Shown: positions 49,438-63,062, counted from the stretch's first letter. The stretch: DNA of 64,000 bases from an uncultured Methanomassiliicoccales archaeon (GCA_963695345.1 OY968769.1:864001-928000), one strand, 5' to 3'. The notes: a model not told the origin generated them from the sequence alone. A program made the numbers and translations.

Positions 49438-50607
49438 ATGGAATTCTGGAGCAGGGTGCCCGGAAACGGGGATGACAGGACAACGGTTCGAAGGAAGGTC
49501 ATTTCGACAACGGTCATCACCGTGGCGATGGTGATCATGGCCACCGGAGCGTTCTTGGCATTGAGCCCTCCGGGCAGCAGGACCGACCTGTGGTTCCTTT
49601 TTCCGGCGGTATGCGCCATGTCGGCGTGCTACCTTGTCCTGGGGCTGGTCGGAGCCCTGGTAAGGGGAACGATGGCCAGCCTGTTGCGTACCGGCATCCA
49701 ATTCCTGAGCTTGGCATTGTTGATTGGATTGCTGTCGATCTTCCTCCCCAACGGACCGAAGGGCATGCTGGGATTCGGATTGCTCTTGATACTCACAGGT
49801 TTTGCGACGATGGCTGCGTACATCGCCAAGGGATTCTCCGATCACTATTGGCTGGCCGGCAGAGCGGCGGCGCTCATGCTGCTGGGCATTACGCTCGAAT
49901 CAGGGTTGGGGATGACGGGGGCAGCGGACCTGCTGTCCGGGATTCCCCTGATGGTGATGCTCGCGGTAGGTTTGCTTTCCCTATTCGGCATCGTGCACCA
50001 GCACAGTAACATATATGTGCGTTCGGTCGGACAGTTTTTCCGCAGCGCGTCGAACATGATCGCCCTGACGGTGGTCTTGACGCTGGTCCTCGTATACGCG
50101 TTCAGGCTCAGGGGCGCCATCGCCGACCAGGCCCCGGAACAGACCCTACTGGGGGAATGGATCGTTTTGGCCATAGTGGTGATCGTGGTAGTGTTCAAGT
50201 TCTTCTCGTTCTTCCGCTCCAAGGAGAAGAAGCAGGACTTCCTCGACACCCGCCGTTTGGTGCAATCGATCTACCAGAACCGGGGAGACACCATATATGC
50301 CCAGAGAGTGGTGGACCAGTTCATTGTGGAAGGGAGGAGGGAACCGCTCGTGGTCCTGCTGGCGACCGTGCTGCTGCAGGGCCGGGCTGACCCCAACCAG
50401 ATCGAGAGGATCATAGAGGGCGTGGTGAGCTACGCACCCAAGGAGCAGAGGCATACCTTCAGGTGGGCTTTTGGCAATGAAGAGGCCATGACCAGGGAGG
50501 AGAGGACCAGGATCGCCTTCGAGGCACTGGACCGGGCGGCACAAGCGCTGGGGGCTGGCTATCTCATGTCCAGTGCCCCCAACCAGACGGGGATCGCGGA
50601 GGGATAG
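49438..50607 (+). CDS. polytopic membrane protein
   Basis: About eight hydrophobic segments and a soluble C-terminus. Confidence 0.7.
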   Translation: MEFWSRVPGNGDDRTTVRRKVISTTVITVAMVIMATGAFLALSPPGSRTDLWFLFPAVCAMSACYLVLGLVGALVRGTMASLLRTGIQFLSLALLIGLLSIFLPNGPKGMLGFGLLLILTGFATMAAYIAKGFSDHYWLAGRAAALMLLGITLESGLGMTGAADLLSGIPLMVMLAVGLLSLFGIVHQHSNIYVRSVGQFFRSASNMIALTVVLTLVLVYAFRLRGAIADQAPEQTLLGEWIVLAIVVIVVVFKFFSFFRSKEKKQDFLDTRRLVQSIYQNRGDTIYAQRVVDQFIVEGRREPLVVLLATVLLQGRADPNQIERIIEGVVSYAPKEQRHTFRWAFGNEEAMTREERTRIAFEALDRAAQALGAGYLMSSAPNQTGIAEG

Positions 50608-50608
50608 A

Positions 50609-51583
50609 ATGGATATTACGGAATTCAGACAGTGTTCCAGGAACATAATCGATTCGACCGGCGGGGTCTTCGTGGGCGATGAGCTTGTGCTCAGGAAGCT
50701 CCTATGCGCGGCATTGGCCAACGGACACGTCCTGTTCGAGGACAAGCCCGGCCTGGGAAAGACCCTGCTGGCCAAGGTCTTCGCCAAGGTCACCGGGTGT
50801 AATTGGGGACGGGTCCAGTTCACCCCGGACCTGATGCCCATGGATATCCTGGGCACTAGGATATGGAGGGCGAGGACCTCGGAGTTCGTACTTGAGAAGG
50901 GACCGGTGTTCACCAATATCCTGCTGGCGGATGAGATCAATCGTTCCCCGCCGAAGACCCAGTCAGCCCTTCTGGAGGCCATGGAGGAAAGGCAGGTGAC
51001 CATCGAGGGAACCACCCACCGGCTCACCAAACCATTCTTCGTCATCGCCACCCAGAACCCCATCGAACAGGAGGGGACCTTCCCGCTGCCGGAGGCGCAG
51101 ATGGACCGGTTCCTGCTCAAGATGGCCACCGGCTATGTGAGGACGACCCAGCTGGAGAGCGAGATCCTAAGGCGCAGGATCCGCTGGCAGGCAGATGACC
51201 CGGTGGACCGCCTGGTATCCGCCATGGACCAGGCCACTTTCGTGGACATGCAGGATCTGGTCGAGAAAGGCGTCTACGCCGATGACCAGATCCTGGACTA
51301 CGTGAGCACCATGGTCCGGGCCACCAGGGAACATGAGGCGGTGGAGGTGGGGGCATCCCCCCGGGGCTCGCTTTCTCTGTTGAAGGTCTCCCGGGCCCAT
51401 GCGGCGATGATGGGACGGGACTTCGTCACCCCTGACGATGTCAAGCTCTTTGTCCGCGATGCGTTGTGCCACCGTATCATCATGAAGATGGAATACGAGA
51501 TCGATAACCGGGTCACGCCTCAGTCGGTGGTCGATGCGATAGTGGCGCAGACCCCGGTCCCGAAGGACTTTGGCCGGAAGTGA
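50609..51583 (+). CDS. moxR: MoxR family AAA+ ATPase
   Basis: PGLGKT, RVQFTPDLMP.D, LADEINR..PKTQSALLEAMEE, ATQNPIEQEGT and GASPR. Confidence 0.95.
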   Translation: MDITEFRQCSRNIIDSTGGVFVGDELVLRKLLCAALANGHVLFEDKPGLGKTLLAKVFAKVTGCNWGRVQFTPDLMPMDILGTRIWRARTSEFVLEKGPVFTNILLADEINRSPPKTQSALLEAMEERQVTIEGTTHRLTKPFFVIATQNPIEQEGTFPLPEAQMDRFLLKMATGYVRTTQLESEILRRRIRWQADDPVDRLVSAMDQATFVDMQDLVEKGVYADDQILDYVSTMVRATREHEAVEVGASPRGSLSLLKVSRAHAAMMGRDFVTPDDVKLFVRDALCHRIIMKMEYEIDNRVTPQSVVDAIVAQTPVPKDFGRK

Positions 51584-51587
51584 ATCG

Positions 51588-52877
51588 ATGCTTCCCCGGA
51601 TCTCGGCCGAGTTCAAGACCTTCGCCTTGCTTCTGGTGGTAGGGATACTTCTAGGCAACGTGCTGATCGTGCTGCTATCGCTCGTGCCGATGTTGTTCGT
51701 GGTCCTGTCCATGCTCTATCAGGCCCCGACCCGGATGAGCGTTTACCGCCCTGCTCCCCAACTGAACGCATACGTCAATGAGAACGTGACGGTCACCTCT
51801 GAGCTTTCCGTCATGGACGGCGTCGGGATAGTGACGGTGGGAGACTCGCTGCCTGCCCATTTCCGCCTCGCCGAGGGCAACAATTTCCGGGTGTATTGGA
51901 AATCCGGGGCGCCTCTGCAGGTCCGGATGCAGTATGGACTGGAATGCACGAAGCGGGGGGTGTACACCATCGGCAACTCGATGATCGAATCGATCGACCT
52001 CGCCGGACTGGAGGAGAACGAGGTCGTCCCCGGCCTTGACCCAGTGGAACTGCTGGTGCAGCAGCGCCCGATGGACATGCGCAAGATGAGGGACCCGAGG
52101 CTCCTTACCCGGATACTAATGCCCCCGGGGGCGGTCAGCAAGCTCGGGTCCACGACCACCGATTTCAAGGAGATCAGGGAATACCGCAATGGCGATCCGT
52201 TCCGCCACATCAATTGGAAGGCGAGCGTGAGGAATTCCGACCTGGATATCAGCAATCCCCTGGTAAACGAATATGAAAAGGAGGGACAGCAGGTGGTGTG
52301 GATCTTCCTCGATGCCTCGGAACGGATGGCCGTCGGTTCCAGCGTGGAGAATGCGTTCGAGCACGGAATCAGGGCGGCCAACGGCCTGTCCCAATTCTAT
52401 CTGGCCAGGAACTGCCGGGTGGGGCTGAAGGCGTTCAATTCCGGCCGTCTCATCCTGCCGGACGTGGGAAGAAGGCAAAGGGCCATGATATCAAAGATGC
52501 TGGTCAGCGTGGAGATGACCAGGTTGAAGGGAAAGATGAAGGAGGACGTGCGGGCCTGCCGGGGACACCTGGTCGGGTCCAGCCCCCTGTTCATCGTGAT
52601 CACCATGGTCAGGAATGAGAACCTGGATGAGCTGAGGGCGGGCATCCGCGAGATGCGTCTGTACTCCGGACCCCGGTCCAAGGTCCTGGTGCTGCATGTC
52701 GATGGCAACGGATTAATACCGACCAATCTGGGGGAAGAGGCCGCCGCCATGGCGACCGATCTGCTGTCGCTTTCCGCGGTCCGATCACTGGCCGGACCTG
52801 GGACCACCGTTGTTCCCTGGAATCCGCGGAGACAGAGCCTGAACGAGCTCATGCTCAAGAACCTGAGGAGGAGATGA
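51588..52877 (+). CDS. DUF58 family protein
   Basis: N-terminal TMs, KRGVY, F.EIREY..GDP.R.INWKAS, VNEYE and FLDAS. Confidence 0.9.
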   Translation: MLPRISAEFKTFALLLVVGILLGNVLIVLLSLVPMLFVVLSMLYQAPTRMSVYRPAPQLNAYVNENVTVTSELSVMDGVGIVTVGDSLPAHFRLAEGNNFRVYWKSGAPLQVRMQYGLECTKRGVYTIGNSMIESIDLAGLEENEVVPGLDPVELLVQQRPMDMRKMRDPRLLTRILMPPGAVSKLGSTTTDFKEIREYRNGDPFRHINWKASVRNSDLDISNPLVNEYEKEGQQVVWIFLDASERMAVGSSVENAFEHGIRAANGLSQFYLARNCRVGLKAFNSGRLILPDVGRRQRAMISKMLVSVEMTRLKGKMKEDVRACRGHLVGSSPLFIVITMVRNENLDELRAGIREMRLYSGPRSKVLVLHVDGNGLIPTNLGEEAAAMATDLLSLSAVRSLAGPGTTVVPWNPRRQSLNELMLKNLRRR

Positions 52878-52878
52878 G

Positions 52879-53601
52879 ATGATGGATCAGCCCCCAGTGG
52901 ATCGCCCGCATCCCATGCCCCGGGCGGTGACCACCCTGGTGGTCGTGATGGCCTTCGTGATGAGCGTCATTACGCTGATGAACTACCGGTTCTATGCCGA
53001 CATACGGTCTGCCGCGTCCCGGTTCTTCCAGGTGCTGGGCGCGGGTTTCGATACCGACATCATCCTGATCGGCCTGATGTTCGTCGCTGTTCTCGTCGGG
53101 GTCGTGAGCGAGAAGAGGCTCCGATCGACCCTGAGGTCCGGATGGATGCTGCTCATTCCGGCGATACTATTCTATTCCAAGATCGATTGGATGTACCTGA
53201 TGGGCTTGCCTGTCGACTTCAGCCTTTTCCACAATGACCTTCCTCAGGTCTACATACTCCTGAACGGTGTGGCGTTGTTCTGCGCCAGCCTGTTGTTCCG
53301 TTCCCACCTGCATCTGTCATGGATCAGGAAGACCCTGGCCGGTCGGGGGGCTTCAAAAGAGGACCTGGATAAAGCCGTGCAGGGCAATTTCATCTTCCTG
53401 GTAGTTCTGGTTGCCCTGTCGGCCGGGGCCGCGGCCCTTATCGGTGCGGCGGTCGGATTGATCATTCCCGCTCTAAGTGTGGCCAGCGGTGCCTTGGGCT
53501 ACGCGTATCTGGTGATCGGCCTGGTCGCCAACGCGGCCATCGTGGCAGTTTTCGGCCTCTACATATGGAAGAGCAAGAGGACGTCCCCGAACCGGGAATG
53601 A
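52879..53601 (+). CDS. membrane protein
   Basis: About six TM segments; last gene of the MoxR operon. Confidence 0.7.
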   Translation: MMDQPPVDRPHPMPRAVTTLVVVMAFVMSVITLMNYRFYADIRSAASRFFQVLGAGFDTDIILIGLMFVAVLVGVVSEKRLRSTLRSGWMLLIPAILFYSKIDWMYLMGLPVDFSLFHNDLPQVYILLNGVALFCASLLFRSHLHLSWIRKTLAGRGASKEDLDKAVQGNFIFLVVLVALSAGAAALIGAAVGLIIPALSVASGALGYAYLVIGLVANAAIVAVFGLYIWKSKRTSPNRE

Positions 53602-53806
53602 GCGGCACACCAGGCAGGTCCGGTCGCCTCTATGGAGGACCGATTTCTATTCCCGTCTTTATTGACAGCCCATGGCGACTAGTAAGATAGGTATCGTAAG
53701 AGAAGCCGCCCCCTTGATTTGCCCACTGTCATGGAACGAATAATCGTAGACTGCTATCATTATCTGTTCAAAGGTTTTTATACATCGGGTTAAACTATTT
53801 TCAAAC

Positions 53807-54610
53807 ATGACCGCCTCCAAAAAGGAGCTGAGAGTGTTCACCGCCTCGCAGGAAGCCTTGTGGATAAATTCGACCCTCATATGCGGGGAGCGCGACGCAA
53901 TACTCATTGACGCCCAATTCACCCTCAGCGACGCCAGAAAGCTTGTCACTATGATCAAGGAAAGCGGCAAGAATCTGAGCATGGTCTACATCACCCACCA
54001 TCATCCTGACCATTATTTCGGCCTTCAGGAGATCGTTAATGCCTTTCCCGATGCCCAGATCCTTGCCCAACCCACCACCGTGGAGAGCATCAAGAAGACC
54101 TGGAAGGGCAAGGTCGAGCAATGGGCCCCGGTATACGGGAACAACATCACCACCGCCCCGGTCATACCCAAACCGATGAGCGGAATGGTGCTGGAACTCG
54201 AGGGGGACATGTTCCCCATCTACATGAACGCCCAGGGAGATGACCATGGTAACTCCTACGTGTGGATACCTTCGCTCAACGCCGTCATCTGTGGAGACAT
54301 CGTGTACAATGGTGTCTATCCCTGGACGGCCGATACCACACCGGCGGACAGAAAGGAATGGATAAGGACGCTGGAAAAGATCGAATCGCTCAACCCATCA
54401 ATGGCAGTGGCGGGGCACAAGGACCCTGCCAAGACCGATGACCCTTCCTGCATCCGATTCATGAAGGAATATCTGAGATACTTCGATGCGGCGATCATCA
54501 CGTCGAAGACCGCGGATGAGCTGAAGGCTACTGTGAAGAAGAAATTCACCGGGCTCGGCCTGGAGGTCATACTGAACATCTCTTCAGGAGTGGCTTTCCC
54601 ATCGAAGTGA
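53807..54610 (+). CDS. MBL-fold metallohydrolase
   Basis: Motifs LIDAQF, THHHPDH, GDIVYN and AGH. Confidence 0.88.
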   Translation: MTASKKELRVFTASQEALWINSTLICGERDAILIDAQFTLSDARKLVTMIKESGKNLSMVYITHHHPDHYFGLQEIVNAFPDAQILAQPTTVESIKKTWKGKVEQWAPVYGNNITTAPVIPKPMSGMVLELEGDMFPIYMNAQGDDHGNSYVWIPSLNAVICGDIVYNGVYPWTADTTPADRKEWIRTLEKIESLNPSMAVAGHKDPAKTDDPSCIRFMKEYLRYFDAAIITSKTADELKATVKKKFTGLGLEVILNISSGVAFPSK

Positions 54611-54878
54611 GGCAGGAGACATTCCTTCCGATAAGGTCAAGCATCGACGATGGGCTCGCCGCCTTCCAAGCGAATGGTGACTCGTGAAGTCACGGGACCT
54701 GTCATTGTCACCACTGTTCCCGATTTCCGAAGGCCCTTCAGTTCTAAAGTAGTGTTTCTCCGATGCGTGGTTGGTCCTCCCAGGCGCTAGCGGTTATCGA
54801 CTGCGTCGGTGGCAGTGGACCGATTAAGGGAAATGTAATAAACGGAGTCCGCATTGGCAGGCATCGTCGGAGCATAAC

Positions 54879-55838
54879 ATGGCAAGCCTTCATGTCAAAC
54901 TATTGGCGGTCGGATTGGTCGCTATACTCATCGTCGCCTCTGTCTACATCGTCGTGTCTCCCAAGGAACAGAGTGCTGACAAGATCCGGATCGGGGTCCT
55001 CCCGGTCATCGATACACTACCTCTGTATGCAGCCCTGGAAAGGGGATCGTTCCAACAGGCCGGACTGAATGTCGAGCTGGTCCAGTTCGGGAGCGCACTG
55101 GAAAGGGATTCGGCCATGGTGGCTGGCTCGATAGACGGCTATTTCGGAGACATGGTGAACACGATCCTCCTGAAATCATCCGGTCAGGACGTGAAGGTTA
55201 TGACCATCGATTACCACACGAACCCCCAGGCTCGCATGTTCGGTCTGCTCGCTTCCCCTGCCAACAACGTTTCAGATATCAATTCCACGATCGGAATGTC
55301 GGTGGCCACCTCCTCAGCGACGGTCACCGAGTACGTTCTCGACAATATCCTGGCGGAGAACAATATGACCGGAAAGATCAGCAAGACGGAGGTCAAGGCG
55401 ATCCCGATCCGTTACCAGTCATTGATGCAGAACAACGTCCAACTCGCGATATTGCCCGAACCCTATGCCACCCAGGCGATCCAGGGAGGGGCCCACTTGG
55501 TGGCGGACGACAGGACGATCAATATCACAGCCACCGTGATCGGCATGAAGGCAGGATTCATAACCAGCCACATCGATGATCTGAAGAAGCTGCTCAAGGC
55601 GTACAACGACACCGTCCAAGCGATAAACCAAGACCCGACCCAATACTATGATGTCTTGGAAAAGGACATCGGATTCCCGAAGGCGCTGGAAGGCAACTTC
55701 ACCTTCCCAGTCCTGAGCAGCACCTCGCTCCCGTCACCGCAAGAATTCCAGAAGGTGCTGGATTGGATGACCGCAAAGGGAATCGTCCAAAGTCCGGTCG
55801 CGTATGATGCCATAGTCGCCGAAGAGCTATACCCGTGA
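54879..55838 (+). CDS. ABC transporter substrate-binding protein (SsuA/NlpA-like)
   Basis: N-terminal TM anchor; IGVLPV.D.LP.Y.A, F.SALERD.A..AG.IDG and LPEP. Confidence 0.85.
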   Translation: MASLHVKLLAVGLVAILIVASVYIVVSPKEQSADKIRIGVLPVIDTLPLYAALERGSFQQAGLNVELVQFGSALERDSAMVAGSIDGYFGDMVNTILLKSSGQDVKVMTIDYHTNPQARMFGLLASPANNVSDINSTIGMSVATSSATVTEYVLDNILAENNMTGKISKTEVKAIPIRYQSLMQNNVQLAILPEPYATQAIQGGAHLVADDRTINITATVIGMKAGFITSHIDDLKKLLKAYNDTVQAINQDPTQYYDVLEKDIGFPKALEGNFTFPVLSSTSLPSPQEFQKVLDWMTAKGIVQSPVAYDAIVAEELYP

Positions 55839-55842
55839 GCGC

Positions 55843-56577
55843 ATGATAAACGTCGAGCATCTGTCCAAGTCATATGAAGGAGGTTTCCAGGTCATCGATG
55901 ACCTGAACTTCGCAGTGGAAAAGGGCAGGTCCTTGGCGATAATCGGGCCTTCTGGGTGTGGCAAGACCACCCTCCTCTATATCCTGGCGGGGCTCACCCG
56001 GAGGTCTGCCGGCACAGTTACCGTGGAGGGAAGGTCGGTGGACGGTCCCTCGACGGAGGTCTCGTTCATCCTCCAGGATTTCGGCCTCCTGCCTTGGAAG
56101 ACGGTCCTTGAGAATGTCTGTCTGGGCATGAAGCTTCGCGGTACTCCGCCGGAAGATCGGGAGAAAAAGGCTGACGTACTGCTAGAGGAACTTGGCCTGA
56201 AGTTGCACCAGGACCACTATCCGGCTAGGCTGAGCGGAGGAGAGCGGCAAAGGGTTGCGATCGGCCGGGCACTTGCCACGGAACCGAAACTGCTCCTGAT
56301 GGATGAACCGTTCTCTTCGTTGGACACGCTGACCAGGGAGCGGATGCAGGAAATGCTCCTGGAGATAAGGAAGAGGAACGGACTGACGATGGTGGTGGTC
56401 ACCCACAGCATAGAGGAGGCGGCATTCCTGGGAGATTCCATCCTGGTCCTCGGCGGGCGCCCGTGCACCGTCCGGGCTATCCTGCAGAACCCGGGCGCTG
56501 GTACGCCAGGACACCGTGGCACTGATTCCTATTTCTCCACCTGCAAGGCCGTGAGGAAGGCGGTGGAGGGAATATGA
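55843..56577 (+). CDS. ABC transporter ATP-binding protein (TauB/SsuB-like)
   Basis: Motifs GPSGCGKTT, LSGGERQR, LLMDEPFS and VTH. Confidence 0.95.
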   Translation: MINVEHLSKSYEGGFQVIDDLNFAVEKGRSLAIIGPSGCGKTTLLYILAGLTRRSAGTVTVEGRSVDGPSTEVSFILQDFGLLPWKTVLENVCLGMKLRGTPPEDREKKADVLLEELGLKLHQDHYPARLSGGERQRVAIGRALATEPKLLLMDEPFSSLDTLTRERMQEMLLEIRKRNGLTMVVVTHSIEEAAFLGDSILVLGGRPCTVRAILQNPGAGTPGHRGTDSYFSTCKAVRKAVEGI

Positions 56578-58208
56578 ACAAGCAAAGGGCGTTCGGCTAC
56601 CTACTATCGTTGGCAGTTGGCCTGATGGCCTGGAAACTGGCATCGCTCCTGGTCTCATCGCCGATACTCCCCAGCCCCGAGACCACCTTCCAGGCATTCA
56701 TAGACACCGCTCAGACCGCTCTGTTCTGGTCCAATTTCGGTATCAGTGCCTATCGGGTCATCGTCGCCATCGCCCTCGCCTGGTGCTTGGCATTTCCCCT
56801 GGGCATCTTCATCGGCTATAGCCAGAAGATGGACCGCTACTTCAGTCCGCTGATCTTCCTGACCTACCCGATCCCCAAGATGGTGTTCCTGCCGGTTCTA
56901 TTCGTGTTCTTCGGCATTGGCGATACCACCAAGATACTCCTGATCACGCTCATCGTTTTCTTCCAGATACTGGTGGCGACAAAGGAAGGTGTGAGCGCCA
57001 TCGACCGCAAGTATATCGATTCGATGCGGTCCATGAACGCCACGAACAAGGACATCTTGAAAGAGGCGATCATACCGGCTGCGCTTCCGAGCAGCTTCAC
57101 CTCCCTCAGGATCGTCACCGGGACCGCCATCTCGGTGCTCTTTTTCGCCGAGGCCTTCGCGGGATCGACCGGACTGGGATACTTTATCTATAACGCATGG
57201 GGGCTCCTTCAGTATACCCAGATATTCGTGGGCATCATCGCCATGAGCATCCTGGGATTGGCTTTGTATGAGATCTTCACCTTCATGGAACGAAGACTTT
57301 GCAGGTGGAAGGAGGTCCCGGAGGGGACTGAGGACGTCACGGACGATCGGTCCGCACTGATGAAGATAACCGCCTATGCGCAGATGATCAAACTGAGCCA
57401 TAGCGTGTTCGCGGTACCCTTCGGATTGGCGGCATTGGTGCTGCTGGCCAAGGACAATGAAATCACCTTCGGGATGGTCTTCTGGATAGTCCTGGCGATC
57501 ATAGGGGCGAGGTCGGCGGCGATGGGCTTCAACCGGGTGGTGGATGCGAAAATTGACGCCAAGAACCCCCGGACCAATATGAGGCACATTCCGTCGGGGA
57601 CGCTCACGATGCGGGAGGGATCGTTCTTCGTCATGGTGTCTGCCGCGGTGTTCGTCATGTCCGCCGCCATGCTGTCTCCCTTATGCTTCTGGCTATCCTT
57701 CCCCGTGCTGGGAATAGTGATGGGATATTCATATGCCAAGCGGTTCACTGCCGCAAGCCACCTGATCCTGGGGATCTCCATCGGCCTGATGCCCCTGGGG
57801 GCCAGCGTGGCCGTGACCGGGACCATTCCCCTGGGGATACTCGTGCTCGGCCTGGCCCTGACCACATACATCGCCGGCTTCGACATACTCTACTCCTGTC
57901 TGGACATCGATTTCGATAAGAAAGAAGGCCTGTGGTCGTTGCCCTCCAGGCATGGCGTCATGAACGCCCTGGTGATCTCGTCGGCCCTCCACGTTGTCAG
58001 TCTGGCGGCCCTGGCGGCATTGTTCTGGATATATACTTTGGGAGCGGTCTTCCTGATCGGGGTAGCGGTGATCGGGGCGATGTTCGTATTGGAACATATG
58101 CTGGTCCGTCCGGCCGACCTGTCCAAGGTGAACGTGGCGTTCTTCAACGTCAACGCCGTGATATCGATCCTGGTGTTCGCATCCGTCCTGTTGGGAGTGT
58201 ACGCATGA
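56574..58208 (+). CDS. ABC permease apparently fused to a UbiA/MqnP-like aromatic prenyltransferase
   Basis: aa 1-~245 is a TauC/SsuC-like permease (YPIPK, EAA-like loop, AE..GLGY). From Met263 (57360) it is a UbiA domain: MIKLSHSVFA, NRVVDAKIDAKNPRT..R, Y.KRF and GFDILY...D..FD. Confidence 0.85.
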   Translation: MNKQRAFGYLLSLAVGLMAWKLASLLVSSPILPSPETTFQAFIDTAQTALFWSNFGISAYRVIVAIALAWCLAFPLGIFIGYSQKMDRYFSPLIFLTYPIPKMVFLPVLFVFFGIGDTTKILLITLIVFFQILVATKEGVSAIDRKYIDSMRSMNATNKDILKEAIIPAALPSSFTSLRIVTGTAISVLFFAEAFAGSTGLGYFIYNAWGLLQYTQIFVGIIAMSILGLALYEIFTFMERRLCRWKEVPEGTEDVTDDRSALMKITAYAQMIKLSHSVFAVPFGLAALVLLAKDNEITFGMVFWIVLAIIGARSAAMGFNRVVDAKIDAKNPRTNMRHIPSGTLTMREGSFFVMVSAAVFVMSAAMLSPLCFWLSFPVLGIVMGYSYAKRFTAASHLILGISIGLMPLGASVAVTGTIPLGILVLGLALTTYIAGFDILYSCLDIDFDKKEGLWSLPSRHGVMNALVISSALHVVSLAALAALFWIYTLGAVFLIGVAVIGAMFVLEHMLVRPADLSKVNVAFFNVNAVISILVFASVLLGVYA

Positions 58209-58241
58209 TCATGACCGCTCGGAAGCCGCCGTCACAGGGAT

Positions 58242-58961
58242 GTGAATGACTTGGAACTGGACAAGAACCCGCAAAGGATCGAAGGACTGTTCGACGACAT
58301 CACCCCCACGTATGATCGCCTGAACCATCTGATGTCCATGTCCATCGACCGGATATGGAGGGGACAGGCGCTGGACTGCCTCGGGCTCAAGGATGGCGAT
58401 CTCGTCCTGGACATTGCCACCGGAACGGGAGACATGGCGATACAGGCCCTCACCCGGGCGGACTGTTCCCTGGTGGGCATCGACCTCTCCCGGAACATGC
58501 TCGATATTGCGGTCAAGAAATGGCAGAAGAAAGTTCCTGGATCGGCATTCCCAGCCGTCCAGGGCAATGCACTATCGATGCCGTTCAAGGAAGGGACGTT
58601 CGACAAGGCCATGGTCGCTTTCGGCATCAGGAACGTTCCGGATGTCGGGGCTTTCTTGACAGACGTGCACCGGGTGTTGAGACCGGGTGGCCGTTTCGTG
58701 GTGCTCGAGCTGTCCGTGCCAGTTTGCCGGATAACCCGGCCGCTGTTCCTTGTCTATCTGACGCAGATACTGCCGCTCATTGGAAGCATGCAATCCGGAG
58801 ACCTGCCCGCCTACCGCTACCTGAGCGATTCCATACTTGCCTTCCCTACGCCGGATGAGCTGGAGAAAACGATGGTCTCCAAGGGGTTCAAGGTCGTCCG
58901 CTCAATATCACAGACCCAGGGCATCTGCCACCTGTATGTGCTGGAGAAGGAGGGCCAATAA
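58242..58961 (+). CDS. menG: UbiE/MenG-type quinone C-methyltransferase
   Basis: Motifs FD.I...YD.LN..MS, LDIATGTGD, FGIRNV and AY.YL..SI..FP. Confidence 0.88.
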   Translation: MNDLELDKNPQRIEGLFDDITPTYDRLNHLMSMSIDRIWRGQALDCLGLKDGDLVLDIATGTGDMAIQALTRADCSLVGIDLSRNMLDIAVKKWQKKVPGSAFPAVQGNALSMPFKEGTFDKAMVAFGIRNVPDVGAFLTDVHRVLRPGGRFVVLELSVPVCRITRPLFLVYLTQILPLIGSMQSGDLPAYRYLSDSILAFPTPDELEKTMVSKGFKVVRSISQTQGICHLYVLEKEGQ

Positions 58962-60769
58962 TGCACTATCGCAACCTGACCGAATTCATTTCCCGCCTGG
59001 AGAGGGAAGGGGAACTGCTCCGTGTGAAGGCCGAGGTGTCGCCTCATCTGGAGATAACGGAAGTTACGGACCTCATGTCCAAGAACCCGAACGGAGGCAA
59101 GGCATTGCTTTTCGAAAAGGTGACTGGCTCGTCGTTCCCGGTGCTAACCAACGCCTTCGGGTCGGAACGGCGGATGGCCATGGCGCTGGGCTGCGATACC
59201 TTGGACGATCTCGAGATGAAGATCGGAGGCCTGCTCGACACCAAGCCGCCTGAGGGATTGGTAGGGAAGCTGGGAATGTTGCCTGAGCTGCTGTCCCTTT
59301 CAAAGGCGTTCCCACGGACCAAGAGGAGCGGCCGAGCCCCCTGCCAGGAGGTTGTGGTCACGGGCGATGCCGTAGACCTTAGCGTGATACCGGTCCTTCA
59401 TTGTTGGCCCAAAGATGGGGGCCGATTCATCACTCTGCCGGTGGTGTTCACCAAAGACGTCGAGGGACATTCGAGGAATGCCGGAATGTACCGCATGCAG
59501 ATATTCGACAAGAACACGACCGGCATGCACTGGCACATCCACAAGGATGGCCGCCACAACTTCAACGGCTACAAGAGGCTGGGGAAGAGGATGCCGGTGG
59601 CGGTGGCCATAGGAACTGACCCATCGATCACCTACGCCGCCACCGCGCCGATGCCGCAGGGGATCGACGAGATGATCCTGGCCGGGTTCATCCGCGGTTC
59701 GCCCGTGGAAATGGTCAAGTGCAAGACGATCGACATGGAAGTCCCAGCGGAATCGGAGTTCGTCCTGGAGGGGTACATCGACCCGGAGGAGAAGCGTGTC
59801 GAAGGACCGTTCGGTGACCACACCGGATACTATTCGCTCCAGGGGGAGTATCCGGTCTTCCATGTCACGGCAATGACCCATCGCCGGAACGCTGTTTACA
59901 GCGCCACGGTAGTGGGGAGGCCTCCGATGGAGGACTGTTATATGGCAAAGGCCACAGAACGTGTGTTCCTACCCCCCCTGAAGAAGATCCTGCCGGAGAT
60001 CCTCGACTACTGGATGCCTTGGGAGGGCGTCTTTCATAACATCGTCGTGGTGGCCATTCAGAAGGAGTACCCCATGCAGGCCCGCAAGGTCATGAGCGCG
60101 TTGTGGGGCAACAACCAGATGAGCTTTGCCAAGATGATCGTGGTGATCGACGATCCAACGCTTCTCCGCAACCCCGCCCAACTCCTGGAACGGATCCAGA
60201 ATAACCTGGACCCAGCCCATGACCTGGTCCTGACCGAGGGAGTCCTGGACGTGCTGGACCATTCTGCCCCCGATGCGTTGTTCGGAGGTAAACTGGGCAT
60301 TGACGCCACGGAGAGGGTGGAAGGTGAGCCCTCCAGGTCGTCTCGGCATGAAGGCCGTCTGACCGATGAGGACATTCGGGCCACGATAAGAGGACTGAAT
60401 ATCCCGGCAGCGTCAAGGTCGGTCGGCCTGAATTCCAGGAACCCGTTGGTGCTGATCGGGGTCAGAAAGGAAGGGGGAAGCTCGAAGCACGTAAAGGAGA
60501 AGTTCAGGCCGATGGCGTCGAGTCTAGGATGCACAATAGTGCTGTACGACGACATCGACCTCAATGACGATTCGCTGGTGCTCTGGAAGGTCTTCAACAA
60601 TGTAGATCCCCGCAGGGACATCGAGCTGGATGGTGACGGGGCGATCGTCGACGCCACCAAGAAGGGACCGGCCGATGGATATAAACGGGAGTGGCCCGAC
60701 GAGATCGAGATGTCAGAGGACGTCAAGGATAGGATACAGCAGAGAAGGAAAGAGTTAGGCCTGGGATGA
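58961..60769 (+). CDS. ubiD: UbiD family (MqnL-like) prenyl-FMN-dependent decarboxylase, long form
   Basis: N.GMYRMQ, MHWHIHK.G, EGPFGDHTGYY, VGRPPMED and LDHS...GGKLGIDAT, with a duplicated C-terminal DP.RD..DATKK segment. Confidence 0.92.
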   Translation: MHYRNLTEFISRLEREGELLRVKAEVSPHLEITEVTDLMSKNPNGGKALLFEKVTGSSFPVLTNAFGSERRMAMALGCDTLDDLEMKIGGLLDTKPPEGLVGKLGMLPELLSLSKAFPRTKRSGRAPCQEVVVTGDAVDLSVIPVLHCWPKDGGRFITLPVVFTKDVEGHSRNAGMYRMQIFDKNTTGMHWHIHKDGRHNFNGYKRLGKRMPVAVAIGTDPSITYAATAPMPQGIDEMILAGFIRGSPVEMVKCKTIDMEVPAESEFVLEGYIDPEEKRVEGPFGDHTGYYSLQGEYPVFHVTAMTHRRNAVYSATVVGRPPMEDCYMAKATERVFLPPLKKILPEILDYWMPWEGVFHNIVVVAIQKEYPMQARKVMSALWGNNQMSFAKMIVVIDDPTLLRNPAQLLERIQNNLDPAHDLVLTEGVLDVLDHSAPDALFGGKLGIDATERVEGEPSRSSRHEGRLTDEDIRATIRGLNIPAASRSVGLNSRNPLVLIGVRKEGGSSKHVKEKFRPMASSLGCTIVLYDDIDLNDDSLVLWKVFNNVDPRRDIELDGDGAIVDATKKGPADGYKREWPDEIEMSEDVKDRIQQRRKELGLG

Positions 60770-61118
60770 GCCTGCGGCCAATGGTGGCCCAATGGACGGC
60801 CCCTTCTCCTGCCTCGGATCGAGGATCAGAAACCATGTCGTGGATGGCTCTACACTGATCTAGATCGATGCCGCCCTGCTTCTTCTTGCACATGGACGAT
60901 TCATCACGTTGAGGGAACCATTGGCTGACCGGTTTGGACGAGCCAGCAAACGATGGACAGGATATGTTTTGTAAGAAGAGGGCCGATGACCAGCCGTTTC
61001 CTTCCCCTGTTTCTCAACTTCTATCTCCCATTGGGGAGCTGCGTCCGCCCGTTCCATTGCAAACCAATAAATGGCATGGGAAGTGTAGAATTCCTACCTG
61101 TTAAGGAAATTCGGTGGA

Positions 61119-63062
61119 ATGAACATGGACAACGATCTGCCTGATATCGAATCAGTTGAGTGCCTCAGGGTCCCGATCAAGAAGTTCAAGCCCGATGAGA
61201 TCGAGGAAAAGGTCAAGGAACGGGCATTGGACAAATCGACCCAAGATGTCCTGAGAAAGACGATGAAGGAGGGTACCGATACCGTCTGGGACCGGTTCGA
61301 AAGACAGCAACCCCAATGCAAGTTCTGCACCGAAGGGATATCCTGCCAGCGATGTGCCATGGGACCGTGCCGTCTGATGGGCGGCGACCGCACCAGGGGA
61401 GTATGCGGCGCCGATGCCGACCTGATGGTGGCCAGGAACCTTCTGGACACCATGGCGACGGGCGCCGCCTCCCATTCGGACCATGGAAGGGAAGTGGTGG
61501 AGACACTGCTGAAGACCGCCCGGGGCAAAGCACCCGGTTATGCCGTCAAGGATGAGGAGAAGCTGCAAGCATTGTCCACGGAATATGGTCTGCCCGACTC
61601 TGACCCCATCAATGTAAAGGCAGAGAAGCTGGCATTGGCCATGCTGGAGGAGTTCGGGACCATTAAGGGAGAGATGCAGATGCCCAACCGGGCACCTCAG
61701 GCCTGCATCGACCTCTGGAGGGCGGCAGGCATCCTGCCCCGCAGCATAGACCGCGAGGTGGTCGAGGCCATGCACCGGGTCCATATGGGCGTCGGGGCGG
61801 ACTATTCCGGCTTCCTTCTGCAAGGGATGAGGGCTTCGATGGCCGACGGCTGGGGCGGTTCCATGATGGGTACGGAGATATCGGACGTCCTTTTCGGAAC
61901 ACCGACCATAAAGAGCTCGAAGGTCAACCTGGGCGTGCTCAAACACGACCAGGTGAACATATCCCTGCATGGCCACAATCCGATCCTATCGGAAATGATC
62001 GTCAAGGTGGCCAGCATGCCGGAGATGATCGCCCGCGCGAAAGCAGTGGGTGCGAACGGCATCAATCTGGTGGGGCTGTGCTGCACCGGCAACGAACTCC
62101 TGATGCGAAAAGGCATACCCCAGGCCGGTAACCATCTGGACCAGGAAATGGTCATCACCACCGGTGCGCTCGAGGCCATGGTCGTCGACTACCAGTGCAT
62201 CTTCCCCACCCTGGCGAACACCTCCTCCTGCTACCATACGATGCTGTTCACCACCTCTCCCAAGGCGGTCATTCAGGGCAGCTATTTCGTCGAGATAACT
62301 CCGGAGAACGCTTTCGAGCAATCGAAGAAGATAGTCGCCGCCGCCATCGACAACTATCCCAACCGGGTGAAGGAAAGGGTGCTGATACCGGACGCGCCGG
62401 TCGACGCGATGGTGGGGTTCTCGGTCGAGTCCATAAGGAAGGCCTTGGGAGGTAGTCTGAAGCCCTTGCTGGATGCCGTCGTTTCGGGCAAGATCAGAGG
62501 ATGCGCCGGCATCGTTGGCTGCAATAACCCCCGGATCAAGCATGACTACGGCCATGTCACGCTGGCCAAGGAATTGATCAAACGGGACATACTATGTGTG
62601 GAGACAGGTTGCTCGTCCATCGCCTGCGCCAAGGCGGGACTGCTTCAGCCGAGGTCGATCGACCAGGCCGGAAAAGGATTGCAGGAAGTATGCGGTTCAT
62701 TGGGGATTCCGCCGGTCCTGCACATGGGATCCTGCGTCGACAACAGCCGGATCCTGGCACTGGTGGCGGAGTTGGCCAGAACGGCCGGAGTGCGTATCGA
62801 CCAGCTTCCGGTGGTGGGGGCGGCTCCAGAATGGTACTCTCCAAAGGCGGTTGCGATAGGGGCGTATTTCGTGGGCAGCGGAGTCAGCGTCTGTCTCGGG
62901 GTGATGCCCCATATCGGGGGAAGCCATAACGTGATCAAGACGCTGACGGAGGACCTGGACGGATTGGTCCATGCCAAGTTCTGGGTGGAGCCGAGCCCCC
63001 TGAACGCCGCGGCCTTGATGTCAGACCACATCGAGATGAAGAGGAAGGCCCTGGGAATGTGA
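61119..63062 (+). CDS. cooS: anaerobic Ni-CO dehydrogenase catalytic subunit
   Basis: C..C..G..C..C.MGPC and GVCG (D/B clusters); HGH, CCTGNE, DYQC, GCNN, TGC and GSCVDN (C-cluster ligands). Confidence 0.95.
   Translation: MNMDNDLPDIESVECLRVPIKKFKPDEIEEKVKERALDKSTQDVLRKTMKEGTDTVWDRFERQQPQCKFCTEGISCQRCAMGPCRLMGGDRTRGVCGADADLMVARNLLDTMATGAASHSDHGREVVETLLKTARGKAPGYAVKDEEKLQALSTEYGLPDSDPINVKAEKLALAMLEEFGTIKGEMQMPNRAPQACIDLWRAAGILPRSIDREVVEAMHRVHMGVGADYSGFLLQGMRASMADGWGGSMMGTEISDVLFGTPTIKSSKVNLGVLKHDQVNISLHGHNPILSEMIVKVASMPEMIARAKAVGANGINLVGLCCTGNELLMRKGIPQAGNHLDQEMVITTGALEAMVVDYQCIFPTLANTSSCYHTMLFTTSPKAVIQGSYFVEITPENAFEQSKKIVAAAIDNYPNRVKERVLIPDAPVDAMVGFSVESIRKALGGSLKPLLDAVVSGKIRGCAGIVGCNNPRIKHDYGHVTLAKELIKRDILCVETGCSSIACAKAGLLQPRSIDQAGKGLQEVCGSLGIPPVLHMGSCVDNSRILALVAELARTAGVRIDQLPVVGAAPEWYSPKAVAIGAYFVGSGVSVCLGVMPHIGGSHNVIKTLTEDLDGLVHAKFWVEPSPLNAAALMSDHIEMKRKALGM

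Follow-up and report, generated by a model that had tools for sequence, protein, structure and literature searches.

The late steps of the futalosine route to menaquinone have been assigned to MqnP (a UbiA-like protein), MqnM (UbiX) and MqnL (UbiD), which were named or predicted by Ravcheev and Thiele (2016; PMC4746308). The same paper hypothesizes precursor salvage for organisms that possess only the last enzymes, with menA and menG acting on external 1,4-dihydroxy-2-naphthoate, and states that importers of soluble menaquinone precursors 'remain to be annotated'; quinones as growth factors are a related topic (PMC5738691). For the Methanomassiliicoccales, a 'liposoluble electron transporter' serving as the acceptor of the Fpo-like complex was proposed from ispA, a MenA-like ubiA and ubiE, in a text that leaves the nature of the carrier to be determined (Borrel et al., 2014; PMC4153887), and a later Fpo-HdrD model is described in a review from the Ferry laboratory (PMC6019823). 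Here we analyse a 64,000-nt stretch of the genome of an uncultured Methanomassiliicoccales archaeon (GCA_963695345.1 OY968769.1:864001-928000; hereafter, the window), which carries a cluster encoding a substrate-binding protein, an ATP-binding cassette (ABC) ATPase, a permease fused to a UbiA-family prenyltransferase, a MenG/UbiE-type methyltransferase and a UbiD-type decarboxylase. This five-gene module is real and conserved, and is probably functional. In what we consider the best reading, held with a probability of about 0.6 and resting on comparative sequence analysis, menaquinone would be made by salvage of a soluble head group, a naphthoate that is probably 1,4-dihydroxy-6-naphthoate.

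The evidence that carries this reading comes from the comparison of loci with and without the permease-UbiA fusion. A metagenome scan with the fusion alignment yielded nine fused and 71 unfused relatives. Genes for the binding protein and the ATPase lie directly upstream of the fusion in all nine fused loci, four of which have UbiX directly downstream, followed in three of the four by UbiD; UbiX, UbiD or UbiE is adjacent in 50 of the 71 unfused loci. In a UbiA phylogeny built from 115 rows (quick search, LG+G4), the archaeal fused proteins group together (support 97) inside a larger clade of 42 rows (support 99), to which bacterial fused forms and eight unfused ones also belong; across the tree, the fused or unfused state changes at least eight times. 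The operon of one unfused member of this clade, L071, encodes, in order, an MqnE-like radical S-adenosylmethionine (SAM) protein, a PF02621 protein, an MqnC-like radical SAM protein, another PF02621 protein, a nucleosidase, UbiA, UbiX and a UbiD of 629 aa that passes TIGR03701. With the five early L071 proteins as tblastn queries, early futalosine genes were found beside 10 of the 71 unfused loci, including six of the eight unfused members of the close clade (L070-L073, L077 and L095), and beside none of the nine fused metagenome loci or the 14 archaeal loci. By gene order, the importer of the fused loci stands where close unfused relatives have the five early futalosine genes, so that the imported molecule would be their product, 1,4-dihydroxy-6-naphthoate; this is the strongest argument for the identity of the ligand. 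The initial annotation had likened the cluster's UbiA to the prenyltransferase of the futalosine route, and the tree and synteny survey agree with it, the nearest unfused UbiA relatives sitting in futalosine operons.

According to the proposed mechanism, the membrane-anchored extracellular binding protein would capture a soluble aromatic-carboxylate head group, most likely 1,4-dihydroxy-6-naphthoate as the last soluble product of the futalosine pathway, and the ABC ATPase and permease would carry it across the membrane. The MqnP-like UbiA domain, borne on the cytoplasmic end of the permease, would then prenylate the head group at the membrane, possibly with channelling of the substrate from permease to prenyltransferase. 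The MqnL-type UbiD would take off the carboxyl group with prenylated FMN supplied by a UbiX encoded elsewhere, and MenG/UbiE would methylate the ring, the reaction order and menaquinone as the product both being presumed.

Family assignments of the enzymes were made by NCBI curated (NCBIfam) cut-offs. The decarboxylase scores 633.3 bits against TIGR03701, 'menaquinone biosynthesis decarboxylase' (cut-off 495.9), which makes it a SCO4490-type enzyme, and falls short of the E. coli-type model NF008175 (399 bits vs a cut-off of 788); among solved structures, it is closest to E. coli UbiD (2idb, 368 bits), an enzyme that acts on prenylated 4-hydroxybenzoate. The long form is kept in relatives, which match query residues 1-601, and the C-terminal extension of ~150 aa (residues ~450-602), which neither TIGR03701 nor E. 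coli UbiD covers, is shared by archaeal relatives and by many from metagenomes. The methyltransferase passes TIGR01934 (Ubie_methyltran; 219.6 bits, cut-off 158.35) and, narrowly, NF001244 (216.8 bits, cut-off 216). As for the UbiA domain, it scores 162.4 bits against Pfam UbiA and passes TIGR01475 ubiA_other ('UbiA-like polyprenyltransferase'; 265.1 bits, cut-off 180.8); 14 aligned fusion proteins show no variation in either Asp-rich catalytic motif, and the nearest solved structure is Aeropyrum UbiA (4od4).

The absence of ubiX reported by the initial annotation is correct for the window but leaves no gap in the pathway, because the genome encodes a UbiX of 180 aa elsewhere (G000:C1:88.8 kb, L001:1498-2040), beside ribosomal protein S19e, which passes TIGR00421 (206.8 bits, cut-off 108.9) and could supply prenylated FMN. 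UbiX exceeds the cut-off in 238 of the 261 genomes of the order, and 141 of 145 high-quality genomes match at E ≤ 1e-20; it was accordingly rejected as a pathway marker, being near-universal and not tracking the cluster. Its partner is probably a second, distant UbiD-family gene (G000:C1:263646-265017, L143:1646-3017, minus strand; ~30% identity to the cluster UbiD), which is split into two ORFs of 228 and 226 aa in different frames. We suspect that this paralogue is a mevalonate-pathway decarboxylase; archaeal mevalonate pathways use a UbiX/UbiD-type pair. The presence of this near-universal UbiX and second UbiD elsewhere in the genome would explain why the archaeal clusters have no UbiX of their own, whereas bacterial fused clusters carry one.

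The remaining genes encode the parts of a type I ABC importer side by side: an extracytoplasmic-looking binding protein, a BPD_transp_1 permease and an ABC ATPase. A hydrophobic N-terminal stretch is present in the translation of the binding protein and in its archaeal orthologues, and the bacterial orthologues have hydrophobic, signal-peptide-like N-termini (judged by eye); from these N-termini, the binding proteins look extracytoplasmic, as an uptake system would need. A homologue of the binding protein with 35% identity occurs in Pseudodesulfovibrio senegalensis. The AlphaFold2 model of the binding protein (predicted local distance difference test score, 94.5) has SsuA, TauA, ThiY, Thi5 and PqqT as its top Foldseek matches, at 13-19% identity, and the protein falls outside the SsuA sulfonate-binding subfamily (TIGR01728 SsuA_fam, 69.8 bits vs a cut-off of 163.5). 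The ATPase scores 116.7 bits against Pfam ABC_tran, and its best NCBIfam match, a taurine-type ATPase, stays under the cut-off (221 vs 357 bits). A hydropathy sketch of the fusion protein shows about six hydrophobic segments, a charged linker (residues 236-273) and then the UbiA helices. The fusion would be topologically sensible because the first Asp-rich loop sits on the same side of the membrane as the linker in the topology sketch.

Ring-building genes were sought throughout the genome and the order. The initial annotation had found none in the window, which is true, and it had pictured salvage in place of de novo synthesis; hidden Markov model (HMM) searches of the whole genome (85% complete) detected no complete de novo pathway, with no match for MenB, a best MenD score of 51.9 bits against a cut-off of 244.2 and an MqnC score of 25 bits against a cut-off of 428. 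PF02621 (MqnA/MqnD) has no match in this genome and is over the cut-off in none of the 261 genomes of the order, and with the five early L071 proteins as tblastn queries the genome yields only a 21.7%-identical radical SAM match. Each single absence is soft, but combined with the order-wide result the apparent lack of ring synthesis is convincing. Sub-threshold PF02621 similarity (22 and 19 bits) was seen in two cluster-positive genomes, in L141 (G024:C138) and L142 (G025:C15), where the ORFs in question are ~335 aa long, binding-protein-like and located on contigs other than that of the cluster.

The fusion protein has 750 homologues at E ≤ 0.001. Among the matches listed, 119 of 120 have both PF00528 and PF01040, the remaining one being a 333-aa fragment with PF01040 alone; the closest are named Methanomassiliicoccales and are 64-91% identical, and the bacterial ones, some of them named Thermodesulfobacteriota, Spirochaetota or Syntrophorhabdaceae, are ~50-58% identical. 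Within the order, the gene occurs in 16 of 261 genomes (14 full length, two cut by contig ends), distributed as seven of the eight genomes of the window's own genus, nine of 24 in a second family and none of 174 in the largest family. In a phylum sample of 401 genomes from 162 genera, only this genome and one other Methanomassiliicoccales genome match at E ≤ 1e-60. Of 14 loci from other genomes of the order, 13 keep all five genes in the same order and on the same strand, which exceeds chance; the 14th is cut by a contig end and has no UbiE match, and an adjacent binding protein and ATPase accompany the fusion in all 14. The module is accessory and belongs to two families of the Methanomassiliicoccales, its probable source being anaerobic bacteria.

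The gene structure described by the initial annotation was confirmed. An ORF listing returned the five co-oriented, tightly packed ORFs with exactly the claimed boundaries, all on the plus strand. Start and stop codons overlap at two junctions, the second (4 nt, ATGA) and the fourth (1 nt, TAATG), and spacers of 4 and 33 nt separate the genes at the first and third. The absence of frameshifts holds too: a three-way alignment with two congeners shows no private non-triplet indels over the 5,891 nt of the cluster. In the same comparison, 258 of the 400 private substitutions in the own lineage fall at third codon positions; the cluster is under purifying selection in this lineage.

Several observations weigh against salvage of a naphthoate into menaquinone. 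The UbiA domain remains under all three MqnP-specific cut-offs (NF041584, 235.9 vs 420 bits; NF041586, 228.4 vs 430; NF041585, 227.9 vs 375), although the unfused UbiA of L071, which lies inside a full futalosine operon, likewise falls under all three (226-247 bits). Three of the nine fused metagenome loci (L067-L069) have no UbiX, UbiD or UbiE in the following 2-3 kb. The fold matches of the binding protein bind sulfonates, taurine, pyrimidines, thiamin or pyrroloquinoline quinone (PQQ) and point to no ligand, and its single PDB sequence match is an uncharacterised protein. The absence calls themselves come from HMM searches of a genome scored as 85% complete. Finally, searches of the genome revealed no membrane partner that would oxidise a quinol, the CydA, NrfD and NarI/HdrE families being absent, and menaquinol has too positive a midpoint potential to be a good donor to heterodisulfide, which makes a simple Fpo-to-menaquinone-to-Hdr chain unattractive. 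As put forward in the initial annotation, the import-and-prenylate idea thus draws support from gene content, the MqnL-type UbiD, MenG/UbiE and the relatives in futalosine operons, but not from the MqnP-specific scores.

The only obvious quinone-type site in the genome is the Fpo-like complex. Its complex I-type operon lies in the window at ~18.0-28.4 kb on the minus strand, ~27 kb upstream of the cluster, with Pfam pieces corresponding to FpoA/B, C, D, H, I, L and M/N. Genes flanking the cluster in the other family and in bacterial loci are unrelated and include no partner enzymes. In this assembly, the Fpo-like operon is broken into many short ORFs, and it is intact in two congeners; the region has 58 private non-triplet indels in 11,101 nt, compared with none in the cluster. 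Local assembly error appears more likely than decay as the source of these indels, because third codon positions still take an excess of the substitutions in the own lineage (143/64/344). Elsewhere in the genome, a 360-aa Complex1_49kDa-family protein (G000:C1:2346999-2347724; L149:1267-2349, minus strand) has an N-terminal CGIC and a C-terminal DPCxxC motif, which we take as signs of an Ech/Mbh-type large subunit of [NiFe] hydrogenase and not of FpoD.

Among the alternatives, the same import-and-prenylate logic could apply to another head group, such as 4-hydroxybenzoate, another hydroxy-aromatic acid or a phenazine carboxylate, with a prenylated phenol, benzoquinone or phenazine-like lipid as the product. 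Besides the UbiA scores under the MqnP-specific cut-offs, 4-hydroxybenzoate prenyltransferase models score similarly (PRK12888, 273.9 bits), the nearest solved UbiD acts on prenylated 4-hydroxybenzoate, and some carriers are named Syntrophorhabdaceae, a family that degrades aromatic compounds; UbiD-family decarboxylases acting on phenazine carboxylate also exist. We nevertheless regard this as rather unlikely, given that the UbiD passes the menaquinone equivalog TIGR03701 and not the ubiquinone-type NF008175, that the proteobacterial UbiA model TIGR01474 is not reached (98.5 bits vs a cut-off of 275.45), that the closest unfused relatives lie in futalosine operons and that the cluster includes neither the hydroxylase nor the O-methyltransferase that a benzoquinone would require. 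Somewhat more doubtful still is an ABC system importing an unrelated sulfonate, nitrate-like anion or vitamin precursor without any hand-over of substrate, the ring being supplied by an unrecognised endogenous route. The best transporter-family matches are indeed of taurine, sulfonate and nitrate types, the fold resembles SsuA and TauA, and HMM absence of the known ring pathways leaves room for an unrecognised one; yet the binding protein is far under the SsuA cut-off, the fusion keeps its binding protein and ATPase in every archaeal and fused metagenome locus (14/14 and 9/9), and the importer takes exactly the place of the early futalosine genes of close relatives.

The patchy distribution (16/261), the undetected quinol-oxidising partner and the occurrence of other genes in the same slot of a congener could also befit a passenger gained by horizontal transfer and now defunct in its archaeal hosts, having neither partner enzymes nor a role. 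We consider this very unlikely, because 13 of 14 loci, spread over two families, retain five intact ORFs, the own lineage shows third-codon-position bias and no frame-breaking indels, and the catalytic Asp-rich motifs are invariant. As for bacterial contamination or a chimeric assembly, a concern raised by the initial annotation and echoed by the bacterial affiliation of the closest non-archaeal homologues, we attach practically no credence to it. The window lies inside a single 2.56-Mb contig carrying mcrA, congeners share the flanks, the cluster is syntenic across 16 genomes of two families, whose flanks differ and in one family consist of archaeal housekeeping genes, GC content is unremarkable (0.55-0.585 for the segment, with 0.517-0.625 across the window), and the archaeal sequences form their own clade. 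Contamination was therefore ruled out, the host assignment holds, and naphthoate salvage into menaquinone remains the preferred reading of the module. We also entertain, as an unlikely but consequential extension of it, that this is the first dedicated quinone head-group importer, whose permease would hand naphthoate directly to the fused prenyltransferase and whose design, widespread in anaerobic bacteria, would have passed to cytochrome-free methanogens, providing them with an Fpo-reducible menaquinone pool; if so, cross-fed bacterial metabolites would be linked to methanogen energy metabolism or to electron disposal to external acceptors.

The features of the cluster are collected in Table 1. 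No Rfam match was obtained at E ≤ 0.1 across 53600-61200, and no regulatory RNA was found there.

Table 1. Coordinates of the cluster and its 5' intergenic region, counted from the first nucleotide of the window.
Feature	Position	Strand	Details
Intergenic region 5' of cluster, presumed promoter region	54611-54878	.	268 nt; no ORF, sequence inspected
NitT/TauT-type importer substrate-binding protein, N-terminal membrane anchor	54879-55838	+	319 aa; Pfam NMT1_2, NMT1
ABC transporter ATP-binding subunit	55843-56577	+	244 aa; Pfam ABC_tran
Permease-UbiA fusion ORF	56574-58208	+	544 aa; BPD_transp_1 + UbiA
Importer permease (transmembrane) domain, N-terminal half of fusion	56574-57308	+	BPD_transp_1 residues 74-242
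UbiA-family aromatic prenyltransferase domain (MqnP-like), C-terminal half of fusion	57339-58208	+	Pfam UbiA residues 281-527
MenG/UbiE-type C-methyltransferase	58242-58961	+	239 aa; TIGR01934, NF001244
MqnL-type UbiD decarboxylase, long form	58961-60769	+	602 aa; TIGR03701

On the 5' side, at 50573-54610 (plus strand), lie genes for a MoxR-type AAA ATPase, a DUF58 protein, a 240-aa protein without a family match and a Vmh-like metallo-beta-lactamase (MBL)-fold hydrolase (217.6 bits, under the cut-off of 430); these neighbours are syntenic within the genus. On the 3' side, the anaerobic CO dehydrogenase catalytic subunit CooS (61119-63062, plus strand; TIGR01702, 650.8 bits, cut-off 478) starts 349 nt past the end of the cluster, an adjacency confined to the own genus, and a 40%-identical CooS paralogue is encoded in the same genome at G000:C1:839424-841307. 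The congener without the cluster (G220) has the same flanks, but other genes occupy the interval from the MBL-fold gene to CooS (positions 937-5284 of L148, G220:C3:59500-67000). They encode two Rieske proteins and a ferredoxin-thioredoxin-reductase beta-like protein, together with a radical SAM enzyme and a UbiA-family protein of 419 aa, and the genes for the latter two are without counterpart in the window's genome.

The module provides a concrete, widespread and testable candidate for the quinone-precursor importers that await annotation, and its architecture points to the ligand, the importer taking the position that early futalosine genes have in relatives. If the salvage reading is true, some environmental Methanomassiliicoccales carry menaquinone obtained by cross-feeding, which would make them further dependent on neighbouring bacteria and could bear on their cultivation, and the question of the lipid-soluble carrier raised in 2014 is reopened for the carrier taxa only. 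The order-wide energy model is not overturned. Here, the initial annotation went too far in expecting a change of the energy model for the lineage: a module present in only 16 of 261 genomes, and in none of the 174 of the largest family, is not part of the order's core energy scheme. Its description of the lineage as thought to lack quinones was likewise incomplete, a liposoluble electron transporter having already been proposed in 2014 from other ubiA and ubiE genes (PMC4153887). A full-text literature search, covering the main texts of articles, returned no description of an importer of quinone precursors, of a permease-UbiA fusion or of such a cluster; the main text of a 243-genome study (PMC10804542) contains no UbiA, UbiD or ubiE, and an article on archaeal fusions (PMC11237513) does not mention UbiA, prenyltransferase or permease.

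Among known systems, the late futalosine module (MqnP/MqnM/MqnL with MenG) is similar in that the same enzyme families are clustered, the decarboxylase exceeds the cut-off of the MqnL equivalog, the UbiA score profile matches that of the unfused UbiA in the complete L071 operon and fused bacterial loci carry UbiX in the same position. It differs in that, here, mqnA-E were found neither at the locus, nor in the genome, nor (for PF02621) in the order, the prenyltransferase shares its ORF with an ABC permease and follows genes for a binding protein and an ATPase, UbiX lies outside the archaeal cluster and the MqnP-specific cut-offs are not reached. The menA/menG salvage sketched in PMC4746308 shares the principle that neighbours make the ring and the recipient adds the tail and the methyl group, whereas the present module would rely on a dedicated importer fused to the prenyltransferase, uses futalosine-type enzymes with a separate UbiD decarboxylase in place of MenA and resides in a methanogenic archaeon. 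NitT/TauT importers (SsuABC, TauABC, ThiY and PqqT) have the same binding-protein fold (TM-score 0.7-0.8), a BPD_transp_1 permease and a TauB-like ATPase, and PqqT (PDB 9b1u) demonstrates that this fold is able to bind an aromatic quinone carboxylate; the differences are the low identity to solved members (13-19%), the score under the SsuA cut-off and the C-terminal enzyme domain on the permease.

The gene set of Borrel et al. (2014; PMC4153887) is comparable in that UbiA and UbiE homologues would make a membrane-soluble carrier, which the Fpo-like complex might then reduce, but the genes are other ones, and the main text of that article includes neither UbiD nor an importer. That earlier 'ubiA' may be related to a UbiA paralogue found away from the cluster (G000:C1:54438-55370, L055:1408-2343), which best matches MenA models far below threshold (91 vs 277 bits) and, used as a query, has a match at E ≤ 1e-30 in 20 of the 261 genomes of the order. 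Taken one by one, the parts of the module are known from these systems; what is new is an importer joined to futalosine-type finishing enzymes.

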